Numbered from the stretch's first letter, positions 54,454 to 64,000 are shown. The stretch: DNA of 64,000 nt from Cloacimonetes bacterium UBA5284 (GCA_002410505.1 DHSO01000052.1:288-64287), one strand, 5' to 3'. The notes: a model not told the origin generated them from the sequence alone. Made by a program: numbers and translations.

Positions 54454-57272
54454 ATCTTGCTAAAGAACCTCGTTATTTCGTCCATAAGCTGTAGTTCATC
54501 TTTGAGTTCCAGGTGTTTACCGGGCAGGATTTCCTTGAAATATGTGCCGTAGCGCTTGCGGCTGACTCTGCTGTCTAGGATCAATACTATGCCTCGATCA
54601 TTCTTTGAGCGAATCAACCGACCAAAGCCTTGGCGGATTTTGAGTAGAGCGTTTGGCAACATATAATGCATGAAGGAGTCTTTGTCTTCGCGCTCCAGCT
54701 TGTCGATATAAGCCTCCACCAAAGGCTCAGACGGCACTTGGAAGGGGATCTTGTACAAAATCAAAAGTGATAGCGATTCTCCCTGAACGTCCACACCTTC
54801 CCAAAAAGAGGAAGTACCCAGCAGTACTGCATTTTGTGCCTTTTTAAACTCTTCCAGTATACTGCTGCGGCTAGCCACTTTTCCCTGTGCGAAAAGCGGT
54901 CTTTGGCTGTAGTACATATGATCCGCGACCTCGTTATAGGCCATATCCAGATCCCGATACGCGGTGAAAAGCGCCATCGTCCCCACATCCACCGTCTGAA
55001 AGATCTGCTTCAAGCAAGACATCGCCTGAGGCTGAAAAAACTTGTCTTTGGGCTCCGGCAAAAAGCTGGAGATCAGCAATTTTGACTGCTTGTCATAATC
55101 AAAAGGAGAATCCACAATCCGCTCTATCACATTTTTATCTTCCAAAAGGGTCAAACCGGATTGATTGAGGAAATATCGGAATGATCCCCTCAGGGCCAGA
55201 GTGGCGGAAGTAAACACGATGGAAGGCACTTGAGTATAGAGCAAGCGTTTCAAGAATGTGTTTACCTCGATGGGAGCGTAATTCAGGATCGCGGCAGGCA
55301 CATTACGATCCGGACGCGGATTGTTCTCTATCCATAGGGCAAAATTGTCCAGGTCCGGTTCGGAGAAATACAGCAAGACCTCTTCCATCTCCGATAGCCG
55401 CATCACAAAGGCCGTGATGGACTCCATAAGTTGATCGTAAGAAGCTACCTGCTTACTTTCAAGCGCATTGATTACATTTTCCAGGGCCTTAGCAGCTTTC
55501 AATATCTCTTTGAACAGCAAGACGAACTTGCTGAGAAGCCCAAACAAGTCTTTGGCTTCAGCTTTGTTTTTGATGCGCAGTTTGTTGTAAGAATCTGCCG
55601 CAGTGCACATTGTTGAAGCCAGATTAAAGATATCCATAGAAGGTTTGCGAGCTTCTTCGATTACATCTTCCAAATGCTTTGCCACTGATATACACTGGTC
55701 TTTTTTGGCATCGGGCAGGGGACTCTTGATCAGTGCCTTTTCCAGACCCCCCAGAAAACTGCCGCTATGACGTCGTGACGTTCCGGCGATTTGATTTAGC
55801 AGGATGATAACATCCGCGTAAGACATTGATGAACCGAGATGTTTGGAGGCAGAAGACATCAGATTGTGCGCTTCGTCGATCACCAAATAGCGATATTCAC
55901 CCAGACTACTGTTTTCCATCCGCATATCTGCCAGTAGCAGCGCGTGATTTGCCACCACCACGGATGCATTCTCGATCTCCCGTCGCAATATCATAATGTG
56001 ACAATTACGATAGTGCTGGCATCTTCTATTGCCGCACAAGTATCTGTCCGAGCAGATCTTGCGCCAGGTGATGTTGAAACGTCCCCGGTCAAAGGAGGAA
56101 TTTTCCGAGATATCTCCGGTAACAGTCTGCAACTTCCAGATATAAAGATACAAAAGAGCCTGAGCGTCCCAAGAGCTTAGCTCCCTGCTGCTTTGATTGA
56201 TCAGCTCTTCCCAGCGCCGTTCGCAAATATAATTCTCCCGTCCTTTGATGAGTACGGCTTTGAATGGCACTGGTAGAATTTTTGCCAATTGCGGCAGATC
56301 CTTGAAAAAAAGCTGTTCTTGCAGGTTCTTGGTATTTGTAGATACCACCACCTTGGCTTTACTGCGATGGGCAAATTCCAGCGCGGGAACCAGATAGGCG
56401 AAGGATTTTCCCACTCCCGTTCCGGCTTCCACCACCAGATGATCCTCGTTGTTAAATGCATCTGATACCGCTTGAGCCATCTGTACCTGACCCCGGCGAA
56501 ATTCGAAATTGGGGAATTTGTGGGCAAAGATGCCGTCCTCGGAAAACACCGCATCGATCTGAGGATTTGCTGCAGCCGGCAAACTGTTGTCGATCACATT
56601 ATAATAGGGACTCTTCTTTGTGGACGAAGGAGGAGTTGAGATTGCCGATTGTCGCTGGAAGCGAACTATCTCCTCAAAGAAACCCGTGCTTTGGATCTGT
56701 GCCATTTTGGCAAAGGAATGCAGTCTCGCGTTCACGATCATGCTGAAATTCTCGCAGGCAAAATCTCCCAAAGCCATCAGCAATTCTCCGGTAGCTTTGG
56801 CATCTGCATCTGCCCTGTGCGCGTTTTCCAAAGTGATGCCAAACTGTTTTACCATCGTGCCCAGCTTGTGATTTGCGCCAAAAGGGAGATAGGTTCTGCT
56901 TAATTCCACTGTATCCCAAGCAGTATTTTCCAGGGGAAAATCTCCGATTTTTCCGTAGTTGTAGTTGATGAAGCCCAGATCGAAGGACACATTGTGCCCC
57001 ACCAGGGTGTCTGAGCCTAAAAATTTCTTTAGTTTTGCCAATACCTCAGCTACGTCCGGTGCGTCTTTCACGTCTTCCGGCTGGATATGAGTGAGGAACA
57101 TGATAAATTTGGGCAGAGCAATCGTAGGCTTCACAAAGCTATCAAAGACTTCCACCACCTTGCCCCTGCGAAAGCGGACCGCGGCTATCTGAATGATTTC
57201 GTCTTTGCGTTCGGACAGCCCGGTAGTCTCTATGTCCAGTGCAGTAAAATTCAACGAGTCAGAAAACTTCAT
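54450..57272 (-). CDS. dinG: bifunctional DnaQ-like 3'-5' exonuclease / DinG-family ATP-dependent helicase
   Basis: 940 aa. N-terminal exonuclease motifs (ALDIETTGL, GHNVSFD, HRADADA). Helicase Walker A AGTGVGKS, DEAH box VIDEAHNL and the C-terminal helicase_C_2 region. Confidence 0.9.
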   Translation of the reverse strand: MKFSDSLNFTALDIETTGLSERKDEIIQIAAVRFRRGKVVEVFDSFVKPTIALPKFIMFLTHIQPEDVKDAPDVAEVLAKLKKFLGSDTLVGHNVSFDLGFINYNYGKIGDFPLENTAWDTVELSRTYLPFGANHKLGTMVKQFGITLENAHRADADAKATGELLMALGDFACENFSMIVNARLHSFAKMAQIQSTGFFEEIVRFQRQSAISTPPSSTKKSPYYNVIDNSLPAAANPQIDAVFSEDGIFAHKFPNFEFRRGQVQMAQAVSDAFNNEDHLVVEAGTGVGKSFAYLVPALEFAHRSKAKVVVSTNTKNLQEQLFFKDLPQLAKILPVPFKAVLIKGRENYICERRWEELINQSSRELSSWDAQALLYLYIWKLQTVTGDISENSSFDRGRFNITWRKICSDRYLCGNRRCQHYRNCHIMILRREIENASVVVANHALLLADMRMENSSLGEYRYLVIDEAHNLMSSASKHLGSSMSYADVIILLNQIAGTSRRHSGSFLGGLEKALIKSPLPDAKKDQCISVAKHLEDVIEEARKPSMDIFNLASTMCTAADSYNKLRIKNKAEAKDLFGLLSKFVLLFKEILKAAKALENVINALESKQVASYDQLMESITAFVMRLSEMEEVLLYFSEPDLDNFALWIENNPRPDRNVPAAILNYAPIEVNTFLKRLLYTQVPSIVFTSATLALRGSFRYFLNQSGLTLLEDKNVIERIVDSPFDYDKQSKLLISSFLPEPKDKFFQPQAMSCLKQIFQTVDVGTMALFTAYRDLDMAYNEVADHMYYSQRPLFAQGKVASRSSILEEFKKAQNAVLLGTSSFWEGVDVQGESLSLLILYKIPFQVPSEPLVEAYIDKLEREDKDSFMHYMLPNALLKIRQGFGRLIRSKNDRGIVLILDSRVSRKRYGTYFKEILPGKHLELKDELQLMDEITRFFSKI

Positions 57273-60200
57273 CCCTCATCCCTAAATAGATTATAGCGTT
57301 GCAGCTTTTTGATGAGTCCCTGACGTGAAAGCCCCAGTTCCCGAGCAGCTTGAGTTTGGTTCCAATCGTATTTATCCATGCACGCAGAGATCATTTTCCG
57401 TTCCAGCTCTTCGACTGCTTCCTTCAAGTTTTGCTTCGTGCTCAGAAGGTCGATGGTCTGGCTGTGCTCATAGTGTCGATGCACTTCTTCCGAGAAATCC
57501 GAGGCATGGATGAAGGTATTATCTTCCACCAGAGTTACAGCACGCTCAATTTCATTTTCCAATTGCCGCACATTCCCCGGAAAATCGTAGTTCTCAAGGA
57601 TTTTCATAGCTTCTTCGGTGAAGCCCGATACATTCTTTCGAATGCGTTTGTTGTATTTATCCAAAAAGTGAATAGCCAAAAGTGGAACGTCTCCCGGCCT
57701 GTTTTTGAGCGGTGGTACTTGTATGCGGATCACGTTCAGACGATAGTATAGATCCAAACGAAAATCGCCATTATTCACTTTTTCCAATAGCGGGACATTG
57801 GTGGCACACAATACCCGCACATTCACTTTCTCGGTCTTGGTAGCGCCGACCCGTTTCACCTCACCTTCCTGCAAAAAGCGCAAAAGCTTGGCTTGAGTTG
57901 ACTGGCTTATGTCTGCTATCTCGTCTAGGAAGAAGGTACCTCCATCAGCGATCTCAAAGAGGCCTTTCTTATCGTAGGCTGCACCGGTGAAGCTGCCTTT
58001 CACATGGCCGAACAGCTCGCTTTCCAAAAGAGTCTCGGGCAGAGCGCCACAATATTGGGCCACAAATGCCTTGCCGGCACGATTGCTGCTGTAGTGCAAG
58101 GCTCTGGCAATCAATTCCTTACCTGTTCCGCTATCACCCTCCAAAAGCACCGTTGTAGGCGTATCTTTCACCTTTTCGATGATCTCAAAGATCTTCATCA
58201 TCTCCGGGCTTTTACCTATTATATTTGCATAGAGATTGCCTTCGTGAAGCTGTTCTCGGATGATGGCATGGGTTTTTTCCAAGTTTGCGCTGCGGATGTT
58301 TTCAATGATTACGATTATCTGGTTCGAAAGCGCGTTCAACAGGTTTATGATGCGCTCACTGAAATAGTGCGATCCGCTTTTACAAAAGAGCAGCACCACG
58401 CCCAAGTTGTTTTTTCTGATGGATAGAGGTAACAGCAATATGTTGTTGTAGGCAGAGGCAAAATGTGGTTGTTTAAAATTCTCCACCTTGTTTTCGCGGT
58501 GAACCTTCGCGCACAGATTCATAAAGACGTCAAAATCCTTGTCTTCGGCAGAGAAATTTCTGAAAATCTTATATTCCCAAGCATCAGGCAGATTGGCACT
58601 GTTTTGCAAGCACAGAATGCCGCCGTCTGCCTCTGAGATATCGATCAGGCTTGTCAGGGATTGATCGATAATCAGATCCAGATCTGTTATTGTATTCAGC
58701 TTCTGGGTGATTTCATAGAATTGATTGAGCAGGTTTTCTTCAAATTGTACTTCCTGCATTTGCGAGGAATATTCCCGGGATATCCGCTGCATCAGTATAT
58801 CGTTCTGTTCCAAAAGCTTGATGGAGCCATATTGCTGAATCACTTTCTTGTTGTTCTTCAAAATCTGCAAGGCCTGTTCCCATTCTTCCAGGTCCAACAG
58901 CACTCCAGCCAGCTCGTAATTTGCCAGAGACAGCTCGTAGTAACTGTTTGTGGCCACAAAGAACTTGATTGCCTCATCCAGATGCGTTCTGGCACTCTGT
59001 GGGTTCTTACGCTCCAGCAGTGCGCGCAGGTAGTGGGTCCAGCCCATCTCAAATTCGTTCTGCTGTTCAGTAGCCAGGCGGAAGGCTTCATTCAGGAAAT
59101 AATCTGCGCTCTCAGCGTTGTGAGTCATAATGAAGTAATAGGCCTGGTTTTGACAGCCTTCTATGATCTTGTCCCTAGCGCCCAGAGCCTTGAAGAAATC
59201 GAAACTCTCCATCAGGTAACGATACGCGTCTTTAAATTTGTGCAATTTTGTGAGCACAGAACCCAGATTGCCGTAAAGCTCTGCCTTGATGTATTCATCG
59301 CTCACTCCGGGCAACAGCTCCAATCCCTTGAAATAGAGATCGTAAGCCAGATTCAGCTCATTGCTTTTCTCATACACTTCTCCCAGGTTGTTAAACGAGC
59401 GCAAGAGTCCTTCACTAAAGCTGTTTTCCTCGCTAAGCTTGATGGCTTTTTCATAATAGCTGATGGATCCTTTCCAATCTCCCTTTTTGAAGCTGAGGGC
59501 GCCCAAGTTGTTCAGGGACGCTACGGTATTGCGGAAGAAATTGAATTCAACGGCAGTTTCCAAGGATTTCCGCAGAGCGTCTTCAGCCCGCTCAAAATCC
59601 CCATGATCCATCATTGTAACGCCGATGTTATTGTATATATTCGTTATATTGTAGGGTTCCGAAAGCAAGCGCTGAATCTTGAGAGCTTCCTCCAAGTAGT
59701 ACAATGAACGGGCGGCATCGCCTTTATCGTCCATCAAACCACCCAGATTGTTGAAACATACCGAGATTCCATTGAGGTTGAAGTAGTCTTTTTCCAGGGC
59801 CAGACTTTTCAGAAAGTAGGTCTCGCTTTGCTCCCAATCGCCCTGAAACATATACAAAACACCTAGATTGTTATAGATCGCCGCCAGTCCTGTGTGATCA
59901 TCGGCCAGCCCATACATGGTTTCAGATTCTTTGAAAGCTTCTTCAGCTTGATCCCATTCATTGATGTAATAGTGGATCTTGCCCTTTATCTTTTTGGCTT
60001 CGGCCTGGATCAGATAGCGGTGATGCTGATCTTCGATGTTGATCATGGATTGCAACACATTGTCCAGAGTCTCAAAAGCCTCGTTAAAATCTTCACTTTC
60101 TGCCAGAATATCGCCTTTCAGCAAAAGAATTCTGGATTTCCAATAAGCCTCGATGGTGGCAGGGGAGTATTTCTTGATTATCTCCAGTGCAAAACTGTTC

Positions 60201-61546
60201 GAATTCACTGCAAACAGTGTGTTTGAAAGATTGTATACAATCTCCTCGGCGGGGAAGTTGTTTTCAGTGCAGATGTGAAGGCATTGCCTGTAGTAGTCTA
60301 TCGCCTTGTCCTTTTGGCTCAGGTCCGAATAACAGGCAGCCAGCTTTGCCGTGTATTGCAGCTTTTCCTTTGCGTTCTTGCTGATCGAGAGCAAATAGTC
60401 GTAGATACTGATGCAGCTATCACCGTCTGAGATCAGCATAAATAGCTGCAGCATCTCATTGAATAACTGCTCGTTGTAAGCCTCTTGATGGATGGCAAGA
60501 CGCAGTAATACCTGTGTCATCTCATCGTGCTTTTTCAGAAAGACGCTTATCTTCTTTAGCAAAGCGTTTGATGAGCCCGGGTTTTCTTCAAGCCACAAAC
60601 CGAAAGCGCGTTTTTTTTGAACCACGCAAGAGTCTTCTACTATGGCCAACAAACCGCGTTCCACCAAAGCCTTGCTATCGTTCTTGATCCCTTTGCGTCC
60701 CAAGGCTTCAGTGATGTCACTCAATTCCATGCCGTCCATGGCATAAGCGGCAGTCAATAACTCCATCTGGCTGTTATTGAGATCGGCCAGACTCTGATAG
60801 TATACCTCATGTGGGTCGTAAGTCTTTTCCAGATACGGACTCAGATCAAATCCACCCTTGGGCTGGTGTTCTCTCATCTCCGAAAAGATGCGCTCCAGGA
60901 TCATCAGATTACCCCCGGAAATCTTGTGTAAGATCTCGCCTTCGGAGATGTAGCTCAAACCCGCGTCCGGGAATATGTTGCTAAGCAGCTTTTGCAGATC
61001 TTCTGCTCCCAAAGTGGGCAGGTTTTCTTCCACTGAAAATGGAAACAAACGCTTCTGCGACAGAGCAATGATCTGAATCCCAGTATCTGCTGCGTATTGC
61101 ACCAGATACTGCAAGAAATCTCTACTGTATGCATCCAAGACGTCACTATCGTCCACGATCAGCACTCTGGGCTTCAATAAATCACGCTTCAGCAGTTGCT
61201 CAGTGAAGTAATAGAAGAAATCATACTGCTTGCCCGTGCGGTACTTGGCAAAATGCTCATTAAACAGCTCCATTTGTGCCGCTTCATCCAAGCCCGTCAA
61301 GATCCTTACCAACTCGGTAAAATGGTTGAAATACAAGGGATGTGGGCTGAAATACTCGATTTGGGCATACTTCTCTTGCAAAGCGGATATTATGGGCGTA
61401 ATGAGATAGGATTTGCCGGAACCTGATTTGCCGGTGATCTCCAATAAGTGACTGTGACTACTGTCTTGGATCGGCTCCAGCACGCGCGACAAATTAAAGC
61501 GCTCGGAAACAAATTCGTGCATCTGTTGATATAGCTTTTCAGGCAT
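57269..61546 (-). CDS. sigma54-dependent transcriptional activator fused to an N-terminal STAND-like P-loop NTPase, TPR array and GAF domain
   Basis: 1425 aa from the ATG at 61546 (AGGAG RBS). First P-loop ITGKSGSGKSY and Walker B VLIVDDSD. At least 6 TPR-like repeats with recurring NNLG motifs. A GAF-like segment. Sigma54 AAA+ core (LLEGDSGTGKE, GSFTGA, ESELFGH, DLYYRLNV). C-terminal Fis-type HTH (QTQAARELGLSRQGLIKKL). Confidence 0.88.
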   Translation of the reverse strand: MPEKLYQQMHEFVSERFNLSRVLEPIQDSSHSHLLEITGKSGSGKSYLITPIISALQEKYAQIEYFSPHPLYFNHFTELVRILTGLDEAAQMELFNEHFAKYRTGKQYDFFYYFTEQLLKRDLLKPRVLIVDDSDVLDAYSRDFLQYLVQYAADTGIQIIALSQKRLFPFSVEENLPTLGAEDLQKLLSNIFPDAGLSYISEGEILHKISGGNLMILERIFSEMREHQPKGGFDLSPYLEKTYDPHEVYYQSLADLNNSQMELLTAAYAMDGMELSDITEALGRKGIKNDSKALVERGLLAIVEDSCVVQKKRAFGLWLEENPGSSNALLKKISVFLKKHDEMTQVLLRLAIHQEAYNEQLFNEMLQLFMLISDGDSCISIYDYLLSISKNAKEKLQYTAKLAACYSDLSQKDKAIDYYRQCLHICTENNFPAEEIVYNLSNTLFAVNSNSFALEIIKKYSPATIEAYWKSRILLLKGDILAESEDFNEAFETLDNVLQSMINIEDQHHRYLIQAEAKKIKGKIHYYINEWDQAEEAFKESETMYGLADDHTGLAAIYNNLGVLYMFQGDWEQSETYFLKSLALEKDYFNLNGISVCFNNLGGLMDDKGDAARSLYYLEEALKIQRLLSEPYNITNIYNNIGVTMMDHGDFERAEDALRKSLETAVEFNFFRNTVASLNNLGALSFKKGDWKGSISYYEKAIKLSEENSFSEGLLRSFNNLGEVYEKSNELNLAYDLYFKGLELLPGVSDEYIKAELYGNLGSVLTKLHKFKDAYRYLMESFDFFKALGARDKIIEGCQNQAYYFIMTHNAESADYFLNEAFRLATEQQNEFEMGWTHYLRALLERKNPQSARTHLDEAIKFFVATNSYYELSLANYELAGVLLDLEEWEQALQILKNNKKVIQQYGSIKLLEQNDILMQRISREYSSQMQEVQFEENLLNQFYEITQKLNTITDLDLIIDQSLTSLIDISEADGGILCLQNSANLPDAWEYKIFRNFSAEDKDFDVFMNLCAKVHRENKVENFKQPHFASAYNNILLLPLSIRKNNLGVVLLFCKSGSHYFSERIINLLNALSNQIIVIIENIRSANLEKTHAIIREQLHEGNLYANIIGKSPEMMKIFEIIEKVKDTPTTVLLEGDSGTGKELIARALHYSSNRAGKAFVAQYCGALPETLLESELFGHVKGSFTGAAYDKKGLFEIADGGTFFLDEIADISQSTQAKLLRFLQEGEVKRVGATKTEKVNVRVLCATNVPLLEKVNNGDFRLDLYYRLNVIRIQVPPLKNRPGDVPLLAIHFLDKYNKRIRKNVSGFTEEAMKILENYDFPGNVRQLENEIERAVTLVEDNTFIHASDFSEEVHRHYEHSQTIDLLSTKQNLKEAVEELERKMISACMDKYDWNQTQAARELGLSRQGLIKKLQRYNLFRDEG

Positions 61547-61570
61547 TATCTCTACTCCTGAATCAGTTTG

Positions 61571-61833
61571 TTGACAGTGCAACTGTAAAAAGAATTGACA
61601 TACTGTCAAGTAAAAAAAGGTTTGCCGCTCCGCGAAGCTCTTTCTATAGTAGTTGCAAAGCAATTCCCCTTTATAGTGACACCTGAAATGTCAAATCGTG
61701 ACACCCACTTGACAAAACAGCGGAAATGCCCTCAGTTTGTGACAGCAATATGTCCATTCACCGGAATCCAAGGACGGTCAGAAGTGACGGATTTTTGTCA
61801 AATCATGACAGCAAAACGGCAGGTTGTGACACA
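61571..61833. repeat. dense array of TGACA/TGTCA motifs (iteron- or operator-like) in the intergenic region upstream of the sigma54 activator
   Basis: TGACA at 61572, 61596, 61677, 61699, 61710, 61740, 61806 and 61828. TGTCA at 61604, 61689 and 61796. GTGACAC occurs three times. Inverted pairs are TTGACA-N3-TGTCAA (61595-61609) and TGACA-N7-TGTCA (61677-61693). Confidence 0.85.
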
Positions 61834-61859
61834 CTTTTATAAATACCTGATCGCTAATA

Positions 61860-62693
61860 CTAGTCAAAGTATTTACTATACCCATCTAGCTTAAGGTGCT
61901 TATCAGATATTTTGCTCAGAATTCTCATATAGCTCAATTTTACTTCTCTTAATGATGCCATAAGAGTAACACAGAGAATTGCTATTATACTAAATAGGGT
62001 ACCAACAAATGATCCTCTTGCCCATAATGAATTGCATGAAAAGGCTTCGAATAATCCCAACTTCGATATTTCCATTGGAAGCATCATTAGGGGAATACAA
62101 ACTGATGTTAATGAACCGATAAGGAGCAGAACAACAATTCCATTGATAGTTCTAAGCCTTTTTATGGACCCACTGATATCATTCTTTACAAGCCCATACT
62201 TTCTCATTAGCACTTTACATTCATGTCTTAGATTCTCAATGTTTTTGTGAGTGTTTTCGATCTTATCGAAGCTAACAGAACAAATTGGAGAGTTACAGCC
62301 GGAATATTCATACTCATCTATTGACTTATTTCTTAAGACTAGTCTTGTAGCAAAGCCAAGATTATCAGGACTATCGTATAATCCATAGACTTCCAATAGA
62401 CATTCCGCAGCAATTGTCTCGGGATCATCGCTGCTAGCACTCTCAAGTTGTAATAGCTTATCCCAGAATTCTTGGCTTTGAAGAATAGTGTTTCTATTGT
62501 ACCATTCGAAGGGTATATTATTAATGTCATTTAGAACATTAGTCCTCTTGAATGCAATTTCACGAAATTCGTAGAGAATTCTGTTACTTACATCTTTTTC
62601 GTTAAGAACTCTCGAGATTAGAAATGCTCCAATAATCCCAATTAGCGCTGCACCACTTTGAGCTAAAGCTGAAAAAAACCAATTCCAATCCAT
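61860..62693 (-). CDS. hypothetical 3-TM membrane protein (candidate effector partner)
   Basis: 277 aa. TM1 FFSALAQSGAALIGIIGAFLISRVL, then about 150 aa of soluble helical region, then TM2 INGIVVLLLIGSLTSVCIPLMML and TM3 GSFVGTLFSIIAILCVTLMASL. Lies 19 nt downstream of the TIR-like gene on the same strand in low-GC DNA. Confidence 0.6.
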   Translation of the reverse strand: MDWNWFFSALAQSGAALIGIIGAFLISRVLNEKDVSNRILYEFREIAFKRTNVLNDINNIPFEWYNRNTILQSQEFWDKLLQLESASSDDPETIAAECLLEVYGLYDSPDNLGFATRLVLRNKSIDEYEYSGCNSPICSVSFDKIENTHKNIENLRHECKVLMRKYGLVKNDISGSIKRLRTINGIVVLLLIGSLTSVCIPLMMLPMEISKLGLFEAFSCNSLWARGSFVGTLFSIIAILCVTLMASLREVKLSYMRILSKISDKHLKLDGYSKYFD

Positions 62694-62712
62694 AATAATC
62701 TCTCAACAAATA

Positions 62713-63915
62713 TCATCTATTATTCCACTCAAGAAACTCGGGATCGTTTGAATCTTTGCCTCTGCCCATGCTGATATCCCGATTCTTGCGGTCAATCTTG
62801 AATTGGTCTAGGGATTTGTATGGTATTGATTTCTCATCGTCTTTGTAATGGACAATATAAAAATGGAAGTTTAAATCATAGTGAGGTCCGGTTGTGATAA
62901 AGATACTCCCAGTATTAATCAGAAACAACGGATCGATTTCTCTACGATAGACGTCTAGGATAAAGTTTGTTGCTCTACAAAGCTCTATAGCAAGGTCTTG
63001 GATAAGTGCTACACGAAAGTCATAATCTTTGGCTAACCTTTCGTACTTTTCCGGATTCCACTCTATCTTATGATATCTCTTTTCAACGCGATAGATTTCT
63101 CGATCATTAATCACAGAACTGTCCATAATAACATCTAGTAAATCTTGGAGAATTAATCTAAACCGGTAAAACGCTTCAGAGTACCTTTGATGATTAAACT
63201 CCCAATTCCGTGAAAGAATCCATAGTTTTAGGTTTTCGAGTTGTTCATATTTTTGGTGAGAGATCCATGGGGATGCAGATGTAAGATGAGATATCCAGTT
63301 GGACATCTCATGCACCTCCAAAATATCAGACCATTTAGTAATGTTATACTTAACAATTTCATTTGCTTTACTTGCAGCCACTGCTACAGGACTATCACTT
63401 TCCAAGACCCATTCTTCAAGCAGTTTTGCGTGTAGTTGTCTGACAAACAAATCCTTAAAACTGTCTGAACCTTCATAGTCTTTGTACATACAGTTGCCGG
63501 ATATTGATTCTTTGTACGCCTTGAGAGCAGCAATTTGTTCTTCATCATTGTGTTCTTGTGGTATTGGCGCTGTTGAGAAGAACAACATTGTTTTCTTTCC
63601 TTTCTCAGAATGCAGTTTAATCTCTTCTACCGTTCCGCTTAGGGAATGATCAGTAGGAGTACCCACTTTTGACCAGAATACTCCTATCAATAAGTCGCAT
63701 GACTCAAGCAGCTTGGTGTTAATCTCATCTTGTGGAGGAGCACCATAGCTTGCTACAGAATCGGTTTCCCAACCTACAGGCATTAAGACTATCCCTCTAC
63801 TAAATGAGTTTATAGTGTTCCACTCATAAATAGTATCTCTTATTAGATTCCTTTCCTTCTGTACATCTCCTGGGGATGCAATGAATATTCTGATCACTTT
63901 AGCATCATAAGCCAT
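62713..63915 (-). CDS. hypothetical protein with DUF4062/TIR-like N-terminal domain and unknown C-terminal domain
   Basis: 400 aa from the ATG at 63915 (GGAGGT RBS 5 nt upstream). The N-terminal string RIFIASPGDVQKER ... LMPVGWE ... CDLLIGVFWSKVGT ... GTVEEI ... TMLFFS matches, by eye, the strand-loop-helix pattern of DUF4062 / TIR-like Rossmannoid domains. The remaining ~270 aa carry no recognised motif. Confidence 0.55.
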   Translation of the reverse strand: MAYDAKVIRIFIASPGDVQKERNLIRDTIYEWNTINSFSRGIVLMPVGWETDSVASYGAPPQDEINTKLLESCDLLIGVFWSKVGTPTDHSLSGTVEEIKLHSEKGKKTMLFFSTAPIPQEHNDEEQIAALKAYKESISGNCMYKDYEGSDSFKDLFVRQLHAKLLEEWVLESDSPVAVAASKANEIVKYNITKWSDILEVHEMSNWISHLTSASPWISHQKYEQLENLKLWILSRNWEFNHQRYSEAFYRFRLILQDLLDVIMDSSVINDREIYRVEKRYHKIEWNPEKYERLAKDYDFRVALIQDLAIELCRATNFILDVYRREIDPLFLINTGSIFITTGPHYDLNFHFYIVHYKDDEKSIPYKSLDQFKIDRKNRDISMGRGKDSNDPEFLEWNNR

Positions 63916-64000
63916 TCTTACCTCCATTCTGGTTTACTCATTGCTATTCATAATGTTCTTTGTTTATTCGATGTATATGCTTTGGCCAGTTGTTCTTGTC

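Follow-up and report, generated by a model that had tools for sequence, protein, structure and literature searches.

The locus studied here raises the question whether two adjacent genes in a bacterial defence island form one anti-phage system, or whether the first is a defence protein in its own right and the second an optional companion. The two genes, termed gene 1 and gene 2, are open reading frames (ORFs) on the minus strand that fill the last 2.1 kb of a 64-kb stretch of DNA from Cloacimonetes bacterium UBA5284 (GCA_002410505.1 DHSO01000052.1:288-64287; 64,000 nucleotides, hereafter the window). An initial annotation had described them as a low-GC cassette in which a DUF4062/TIR-like protein might signal to a partner with three transmembrane (TM) helices. 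Its DUF4062 assignment and the defence context stood, while a HEPN motif in gene 1, a SLATT-like gene 2, the signal-effector pairing and the choice of the catalytic glutamate did not. We consider it rather probable that gene 1 is a one-polypeptide DUF4062/NIR sensor-effector built like the Evangelion and Swarozyc systems, and that gene 2 is facultative.

Gene 1 (62713..63915, minus strand) encodes 400 amino acids (aa) when read from the second ATG of its frame, at 63915, which is the start position in most homologues (equivalent MAY/MSY), or 404 aa when read from the first ATG (62713..63927). A Shine-Dalgarno-like GGAGGT (63920..63925, minus strand) lies 4 nt upstream of the ATG at 63915. Gene 2 (61860..62693, minus strand) follows after a 19-nt spacer (62694..62712) and encodes a 277-aa membrane protein of a large unannotated family with three TM helices. 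Both frames were confirmed on the minus strand, the initial annotation having named no strand, and the peptides named for gene 1 in the initial annotation (RIFIASPGDVQKER, PVGWE, CDLLIGVFWSKVGT and RNWEFNH) are all present.

Residues 1-165 of gene 1 (63421..63915, minus strand) comprise a DUF4062/NIR domain, a predicted TIR-like NADase, according to Pfam, PADLOC, homologues and the structure model. As had been proposed, the N-terminus matches Pfam PF13271, over aa 13-103 of the 404-aa form and at 27.4 bits (E 4e-06), above the cut-off of 24.7, and many homologues carry a precomputed PF13271 call. The N-terminus of the PADLOC candidate PDC-S60, of which we found no mention in the literature searched, matches at 3.7e-31, limited to profile positions 3-201 of 906. 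A homologue search covering 5.8 billion proteins yielded 105 relatives, among them 9 that are full-length (48-100% identity) and about 95 of 280-330 aa that share the first ~165 residues only. Glu98 of the SGTVEEI motif (SGTVE-E98-I in 400-aa numbering; codon 63622..63624, minus strand) is the sole invariant column of the 105-sequence alignment, and F11, W49 and E50 (PVGWET) are invariant or nearly so. By tblastn, aa 7-162 share 32.7% identity (E 2e-24) with a DUF4062 protein carried by 155 Enterococcus plasmids, and a plasmid DUF4062 protein of Synechococcus elongatus shows 46.7% identity to the domain. The AlphaFold model of gene 1 (mean predicted local distance difference test, pLDDT, 79.9) has two domains, the N-terminal one with strand-helix (beta-alpha) alternation at high confidence. 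On sequence grounds, the N-terminal domain of gene 1 is a genuine DUF4062 domain, and the protein belongs to the named DUF4062 anti-phage class; by analogy with homologous systems, it would act as an NADase. A direct sequence match of gene 1 to solved structures was not found with phmmer, and MarR and trigger-factor matches of a mixed-domain profile (A4) were discarded as spurious, since they came from the different C-termini of the shorter homologues.

The class itself is already known, and gene 1 is a new member of it with an undescribed C-terminal auxiliary (AUX) domain. The initial annotation had held that neither gene resembles a named system; in 2026, however, DUF4062 proteins were tested and received names: Swarozyc, Evangelion, Vulcan, Vesta and NIR-Avs. 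In Swarozyc, the phage portal activates DUF4062, which is a TIR-like NADase; the catalytic E97 and an auxiliary domain are both required (bioRxiv 10.64898/2026.05.01.722283; structures PDB 10wc, 11cq and 11cv). Evangelion, for which the available part of the preprint is our source throughout, comprises single-gene DUF4062 plus AUX systems, with F11, W51-E52 and E87 conserved in Eva01 (bioRxiv 10.64898/2026.06.25.731849). NAD+ depletion has further been reported for Avs2-NIR, Vulcan (E98) and Vesta (E103) in a preprint that places DUF4062 genes near defence genes at 20% versus 3.9% expected (bioRxiv 10.64898/2026.09.04.749371). In published experiments, DUF4062 proteins deplete NAD+ and protect by abortive infection, for which the glutamate and the AUX region are each necessary (10.64898/2026.05.01.722283, 10.64898/2026.06.25.731849, 10.64898/2026.09.04.749371); the enzymes yield ADP-ribose and nicotinamide, and a signalling product was not reported (10.64898/2026.05.01.722283, 10.64898/2026.09.04.749371). 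Their catalytic glutamates are KpSwz E97, Vulcan E98, VstA E103, PsAvs2 E108 and Eva01 E87. For gene 1, the initial annotation had suggested the glutamate of GWE, but the glutamate described in these preprints as required for defence corresponds to E98 in SGTVEEI, whereas GWE belongs to a separate conserved "Q/W/E" motif. Its invariance and a marginal profile alignment with KpSwz make Glu98 the predicted catalytic residue, and F11 and W49-E50 correspond to the F11 and W51-E52 given for Eva01 in the available text.

Gene 1 resembles Evangelion, as described in the available text, in being one polypeptide with an N-terminal DUF4062/TIR-like core and a C-terminal auxiliary region without annotated domain, in the conserved F11, the W-E motif and the later catalytic glutamate, and in being mobile and occurring in defence or mobile genetic element contexts. 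In addition, its domain matches plasmid DUF4062 proteins of Enterococcus and Synechococcus, both of them among the genera reported there to have Evangelion-positive plasmids (10.64898/2026.06.25.731849). However, AUX spans ~230 aa here, whereas the corresponding part of Eva01 is described in the available text as a "short C-terminal segment". AUX also occurs fused to HNH, the gene is chromosomal and stems from an uncultured anaerobe phylum, a 3-TM gene is tightly linked downstream, and Staphylococcus (Eva01) is absent from the organisms listed as matches in our plasmid search. With Swarozyc, gene 1 shares the DUF4062 NADase plus C-terminal AUX, which in KpSwz senses the phage portal, and a nearly equal position of the glutamate (E97 versus E98), but the sequence relation is marginal and confined to the NADase domain (PDB profile searches, E 0.05 to 0.4); a portal-binding AUX of the KpSwz type was matched neither in the PDB profile searches nor by phmmer. 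The NIR systems (Avs2-NIR; Vulcan, which is NIR plus HEAT repeats; Vesta, which is VstA plus the alkaline phosphatase VstB) have the same effector domain, and in Vesta a small NIR protein likewise sits in a conserved two-gene operon. Unlike these, gene 1 has no STAND NTPase, HEAT or TPR repeats, and with 201 of 906 profile positions covered, a length of 400 aa and no repeat-family match it also differs from Vulcan and PDC-S60. Its second gene encodes a 3-TM protein that belongs to no phosphatase or other Pfam or NCBIfam family. Neither a membrane partner nor an HNH counterpart is mentioned in the text-searched DUF4062 preprints, the search for membrane terms having covered those other than Evangelion.

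The AUX domain (aa ~170-400, ~230 aa; 62716..63408, minus strand) carries conserved FRxxLxDL, KxY, ELxRAxNxxxDxxR, PY and RxxRDxxxG motifs, and a Pfam search with the C-terminal 235 aa returned no family. An AUX profile recovered only the 9 orthologues and P0113, P0114 and P0115 (P and L numbers are our labels for proteins and loci). In P0113 and P0114 an HNH nuclease occupies the N-terminus in place of DUF4062: P0113 bears HNH-type motifs there, and its homologue in L113 scores as Pfam HNH_2. The same architecture is found in Pseudoalteromonas and Rhizobium replicons (Pfam HNH_2, 23.5 bits against a cut-off of 21). The AUX-HNH fusion occurs in five proteins from other phyla, and these HNH-AUX proteins appear to stand alone. 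Across 11 AUX sequences 21 columns are invariant, including ELxRAxNxxxDxxR and RxxRDxxxG. Attachment of a single domain to two unrelated killing domains commonly marks a sensing or regulatory module, and we infer that AUX is one, which would act as a portable sensor or regulator. The linker and the beginning of AUX are also where gene 1 differs most among cassette variants, an observation we count in favour of this reading. A DUF4062 match on P0113 was an artefact, as P0113-P0115 had been in the alignment used to build the N-terminal hidden Markov model.

Within AUX, the string RNWEFNH had been tentatively likened to the HEPN pattern Rx4-6H. R236 and W238 are indeed invariant, but P0003, P0004 and P0009 have Q in place of the histidine, and P0008 shows a rearranged motif (four of nine orthologues in total). 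The motif is not in the invariant set of the wider AUX alignment, and no HEPN Pfam match was obtained; with the histidine not conserved, we ruled the HEPN reading out. On the metagenome contig L020 (98-2044 and 4672-5847), a DUF4062-nSTAND1 protein and a second DUF4062 protein enclose an ORF that consists of AUX only (P0115; 239 aa and possibly truncated), which suggests local shuffling of DUF4062 and AUX modules.

If gene 1 works like its characterised relatives, the N-terminal TIR-like NADase domain, with Glu98 as catalytic residue, would be held inactive until the AUX domain detects an infection cue. The NADase domain would then be released, probably via oligomerisation as in KpSwz, and would hydrolyse NAD+, so that the infected cell arrests or dies (abortive infection). 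Elsewhere, the same AUX module would drive an HNH nuclease instead of the NADase.

For gene 2, a soluble region of ~150 aa with one TM helix on its N-terminal side and two on its C-terminal side had been annotated, and this layout holds: there are three hydrophobic segments, and the AlphaFold model is all-helical (pLDDT 72.4). TM1 (aa 6-31; 62601..62678, minus strand) is preceded by a near-invariant MDWNWFF, contains the invariant Gln12 and is the most conserved part of the family. TM2 (aa 180-209; 62067..62156, minus strand) holds the invariant Pro201 and Pro206 of a YPLxFLP motif, and TM3 (aa 223-254; 61932..62027, minus strand) was assigned from hydropathy. Among 60 diverse members, conservation is 0.76 at TM1 versus 0.33 for the soluble region. 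Basic residues are distributed in a way that suggests a cytoplasmic location of both the soluble region and the C-terminal tail. A word-indexed search had returned only 7 relatives of gene 2; with an exhaustive profile search, 735 representative clusters were obtained at E<=1e-3 (332 at E<=1e-10), almost all of them of 280-330 aa with end-to-end matches.

This large family has no counterpart in Pfam, NCBIfam, PADLOC or PHROGs, structural searches returned no convincing match (best E 0.038 in PDB and 0.06 in BFVD), and tblastn of gene 2 against phage and plasmid records found none. The comparison with SLATT-like proteins could not be upheld either: gene 2 has no SLATT match at E<=1, there is none among the 60 family members, and the PADLOC matches include no SLATT entry. 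A PycTM match was at chance level (0.0018, 1 of 60 members), and membership in neither family was found. Equally, a ligand-binding domain such as Macro, SAVED or SLOG was not recognised. Foldseek look-alikes of the gene-2 model (bestrophin, TolQ, ClyA and designed bundles; E >= 0.04, TM <= 0.4) were not used as evidence, and weak matches to SUR7 (Pfam, below cut-off), XhlA (1 of 60 members) and PHROGs (0.0012) were taken as noise. Gene 2 is best described as a separately mobile 3-TM protein whose membrane core is conserved and whose soluble domain, probably cytoplasmic, is variable. Most likely, it acts alone at the membrane, by exclusion or membrane permeabilisation, or serves as an optional accessory.

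Whether the two genes belong together was assessed from both sides. Among 50 genome loci of the gene-2 family, which span Bacteroidota, Pseudomonas, Vibrio, Haemophilus, Acidobacteriota and others, DUF4062 lies upstream in 2, both from Cloacimonadota, and in the 21 viral loci (IMG/VR contigs) it was found beside the family in none. We found no recurrent neighbour of the family; integrases, UmuDC, Cas4/Cas1, HerA, AbiJ, Eco57I-type enzymes and lysis genes occur next to it, as do housekeeping genes (G6PD, Tex). Even in Cloacimonadota, gene-2 homologues also follow the 200-aa P0110 or the HNH protein P0111, or sit between AbiL and Fic (P0112). Seen from gene 1, the downstream gene alternates among orthologues. 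Gene 2 follows in the P0001, P0005 and P0007 lineages, and the pair is present at two chromosomal sites. An unrelated soluble protein of ~260 aa, termed partner B, follows P0003 (81% identical to gene 1), P0004 (75%) and P0008 (58%). P0009 (48%) has neither of the two, and HD/UvrD/DarT/DarG genes lie downstream of it. The pairing is thus lineage-restricted and facultative, gene 2 is in our reading not an obligate partner, and the TIR-signal plus TM-effector pairing suggested at first is not supported.

Partner B itself (L021 11234-12019, L084 2273-3076, L115 9248-10003; soluble, ~250-267 aa) has no Pfam, PADLOC or PHROGs family, each library having been applied to one to three copies. The copies after P0003 and P0008 are 55% identical to each other, and distant relatives reside on Bradyrhizobium, Sphingobium and Streptomyces plasmids.

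The low-GC stretch noted by the initial annotation is borne out. The region 61860-64000 has a GC content of 37.1% (0.371), the lowest in 310 sliding windows of the same size (mean 0.467, s.d. 0.018; 46.7 ± 1.8%). On the longer contig L001, GC is 0.385 for gene 1 and 0.356 for gene 2, versus 0.492 for the upstream DrmMI-like methylase and 0.461 for the downstream sigma-54 regulator. Because the flanking genes have normal GC, the compositional island consists of exactly gene 1 and gene 2. Direct repeats flanking the cassette as insertion marks were not found. On balance we believe, with the same confidence as in the explanation as a whole, that the two genes form a low-GC cassette passed on by horizontal exchange, which sits in a Cloacimonadota genome where a DISARM-like/SoFic defence island ends; co-transcription of gene 2 with gene 1 is probable. 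Contigs from anaerobic-digester and fermentation metagenomes are identical to the window, and close relatives of it are labelled Candidatus Cloacimonadota.

The context agrees with the proposed defence module. Gene 1 lies 16 nt after a DrmMI-like/type IIG methylase gene, whose 3' end (63944..64000, minus strand; frame ...WPKHIHRINKEHYE*, stop TAG 63946-63944) lies outside the low-GC cassette; the distance is counted from the stop to the first ATG, and the full methylase gene on L001 encodes 1432 aa. PADLOC assigned the upstream genes on L001 to DrmMI (1.4e-75) and REase_MTase_IIG (9.8e-53) for the methylase, to a DpdE/DrmD-like SNF2 helicase (1.6e-244 and 3e-84) and to SoFic (1.3e-116). Orthologues stand beside AbiL, BREX-like, GmrSD and DarT/DarG genes: the P0007 pair has AbiLi/AbiLii as PADLOC-assigned neighbours, P0008 sits among PglZ, UvrD-type helicase, Mrr and GmrSD genes (a BREX-like island), and P0009 follows tsaD. 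All gene-1 contexts examined are defence islands (DISARM-like/SoFic, AbiL, BREX-like, DarTG).

Some of what weighs against our reading points to an obligate two-gene system, in which gene 1 would sense infection and activate gene 2 as a membrane-permeabilising effector, via an NAD-derived product or by contact, following Thoeris type II or CBASS logic and with partner B as an alternative effector. The junction is tight, with a spacing of 19-21 nt also in L085, L087, L088 and L004, and is kept across three gene-1 lineages, and there is no terminator-like site in the scanned region 61400-64000. The deviant GC is common to both genes, and both chromosomal sites carry the pair. The junction was also conserved through recombination. 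When the window type is compared with L085, identity is 100% across the 3' end of gene 1 and the initial ~350 nt of gene 2, and 52-80% in the remaining gene 1. In the most divergent gene-1 stretch between cassette variants (approx. 63130..63500, minus strand, from sliding nucleotide identity; end of the NADase domain, linker and start of AUX), identity to the L004 and L085 variants falls to 52-54%, against 92-100% for the gene-1 3' end and gene-2 start. Partner B, in turn, follows gene 1 into the unrelated BREX-like island, which hints at a real two-gene design with interchangeable second components. In this lineage, the spacing, the shared GC and the identical junction speak for gene 2 being more than a chance neighbour. 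Further in favour of such a system, a distant gene-1 homologue (L091) also has TM-rich ORFs after it, one gene-2 relative takes the place of the holin in a phage lysis cassette, in keeping with a membrane-lesion activity, and the Swarozyc authors noted that some DUF4062 genes are part of operons and might have roles beyond NADase (10.64898/2026.05.01.722283). Thoeris type II, and CBASS or Pycsar with TM effectors, likewise have a TIR-like protein beside a multi-TM protein in a defence island. Yet no Macro, SAVED or cyclase component is present here, and the pairing is not conserved across either family. Nor is an obligate system easily reconciled with the absence of DUF4062 from 48 of the 50 genome loci and from every one of the 21 viral loci that carry the gene-2 family, with P0009, or with HNH-AUX proteins that appear to stand alone. 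The known DUF4062 products do not include a reported signalling molecule, gene 2 has no recognisable Macro, SAVED or SLOG domain to receive one, and in Vesta, the only tested two-gene DUF4062 system, the second gene is dispensable (10.64898/2026.09.04.749371). We therefore regard an obligate pair as unlikely. A related idea, that gene 1 is a sensor with a swappable second gene, the DUF4062 or AUX domain switching on a holin-like gene 2 or partner B, and that the gene-2 family represents new widespread membrane immune effectors, seems to us rather improbable. Two further points count against our reading on the side of gene 1 itself. The match of the N-terminal-domain profile to 10wc_A, the structure sequence of KpSwz E97A, is marginal (E 0.05), with E98 falling on the mutated alanine. 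Foldseek, moreover, ranks generic flavodoxin-like and GTPase folds first and TIR at rank 22 (4c6s, TMt 0.58) and 40, and against PDB it did not return the KpSwz chain. The Foldseek outcome is compatible with a TIR-like fold and does not discriminate.

Gene 1, with or without gene 2, might also be an accessory of the upstream DISARM-like/type IIG system, for example a back-up abortive module for when restriction is inhibited. It begins 13-16 nt after, or overlaps, the DrmMI-like methylase in the P0001, P0003 and P0004 lineages, a methylase remnant lies upstream of P0007, and no convincing separate promoter for the cassette was found. P0008 and P0009, however, occur without DrmMI, other DUF4062 proteins function as single genes, and the GC of the cassette is 11-14 points off that of the methylase, which implies that the cassette was added later; the chance of a dedicated accessory is slim indeed. 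A cassette unrelated to defence, be it an addiction/toxin module or an element-encoded NAD/nucleoside enzyme next to an unrelated membrane protein, would agree with the relationship of DUF4062 to nucleoside 2-deoxyribosyltransferases (10.64898/2026.05.01.722283), with a gene 2 of no assignable function and with the housekeeping neighbours of part of its family. We find this very unlikely in view of the defence islands around every gene-1 copy examined, the published enrichment of DUF4062 genes near defence genes and the effector swap with HNH, which is typical of immune sensors.

That DUF4062/NIR NADases are immune effectors was recognised only in 2026, and most of the sensing domains joined to them are still unmapped. 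To these, the one-polypeptide gene 1 adds an AUX domain common to NADase and HNH-nuclease effectors, a natural experiment in which one putative sensor domain is combined with two unrelated killing activities. It comes from Cloacimonadota, an uncultured phylum of anaerobic digesters in which no defence system has been tested. The gene-2 family, large, unannotated and recurring in defence islands, prophages and cas operons, may reasonably be put forward as a candidate defence or exclusion gene of a new, membrane-acting kind. Were the second gene swappable after all, the DUF4062 enzyme would act upstream of a separate killing device rather than kill by NAD+ depletion alone, and the 735-cluster family would work alone or be recruited by different sensors (DUF4062-AUX, an HNH protein, CRISPR adaptation operons). 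Nothing here overturns current ideas; the new family is extended, and two testable candidates are added.

Members of the gene-2 family were also seen in other settings. In a type I-C-like CRISPR-Cas operon of Pasteurellaceae/Haemophilus, one lies between cas4 and cas1 (L048 6001-6948, L055 6001-6951), where Cas4, Cas1 and Cas7 were confirmed with Pfam and PADLOC. In an IMG/VR contig (L109 2586-3563), another has a UmuD-like gene immediately ahead of it and an endolysin and an Rz-like spanin immediately behind it, the usual position of a holin; L111 is the same phage, and the gene-2 member is frameshifted there. Since only two independent phage lineages account for the gene-2 relatives found beside endolysin genes, we set this adjacency aside as evidence and keep it as a lead only.

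A protein of 200-210 aa with the conserved motif (Y/C)RNTI(A/T)H, an Rx4H pattern, occurs in L014 (320-922), L012 (7259-7894) and L084 (3073-3705). It precedes a gene-2 homologue at one locus, follows partner B at another and has no Pfam, PADLOC or PHROGs family. Homology of the AUX domain to the 200-aa form upstream of a gene-2 homologue was considered and dismissed (BLASTP E 0.4, unrelated).

Upstream of the P0007/P0108 pair, a 112-codon ORF (L004 9546-9884) begins with a sequence that shares 83% identity with the C-terminus of the DrmMI-like methylase. The ORF is a methylase remnant, which suggests that at this site, too, the pair was formerly joined to the same methylase gene. On the other side of the cassette, a TPR/GAF/sigma-54-activator/HTH_8 gene of 1417-1464 aa (window 57269-61663, minus strand; also in L001, L023 and L012) marks one edge of a variable Cloacimonadota defence hotspot, of which tsaD is the other edge. 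The cargo differs in each of several genomes: the DISARM-like genes with SoFic and the cassette; a DUF4062 gene with HD, UvrD and DarT/DarG; or small unknown genes with a gene-2 homologue. The 196 nt between gene 2 and the regulator gene (61664-61859) contain an imperfect palindrome, TGTCAAATC(G/A)TGACA, at 61689-61703 and 61796-61810, and several GTGACA half-sites; together they resemble an operator array for the regulator gene.

Finally, in L080, L081 and L082 (5990-7531), a different short DUF4062 protein, found on many gut-metagenome contigs (P0081, 305 aa), is always followed by a conserved 513-aa protein without a family. This pair adjoins Rhs/CdiA toxin, SIR2 and TIR genes and is possibly a further two-gene DUF4062 arrangement.

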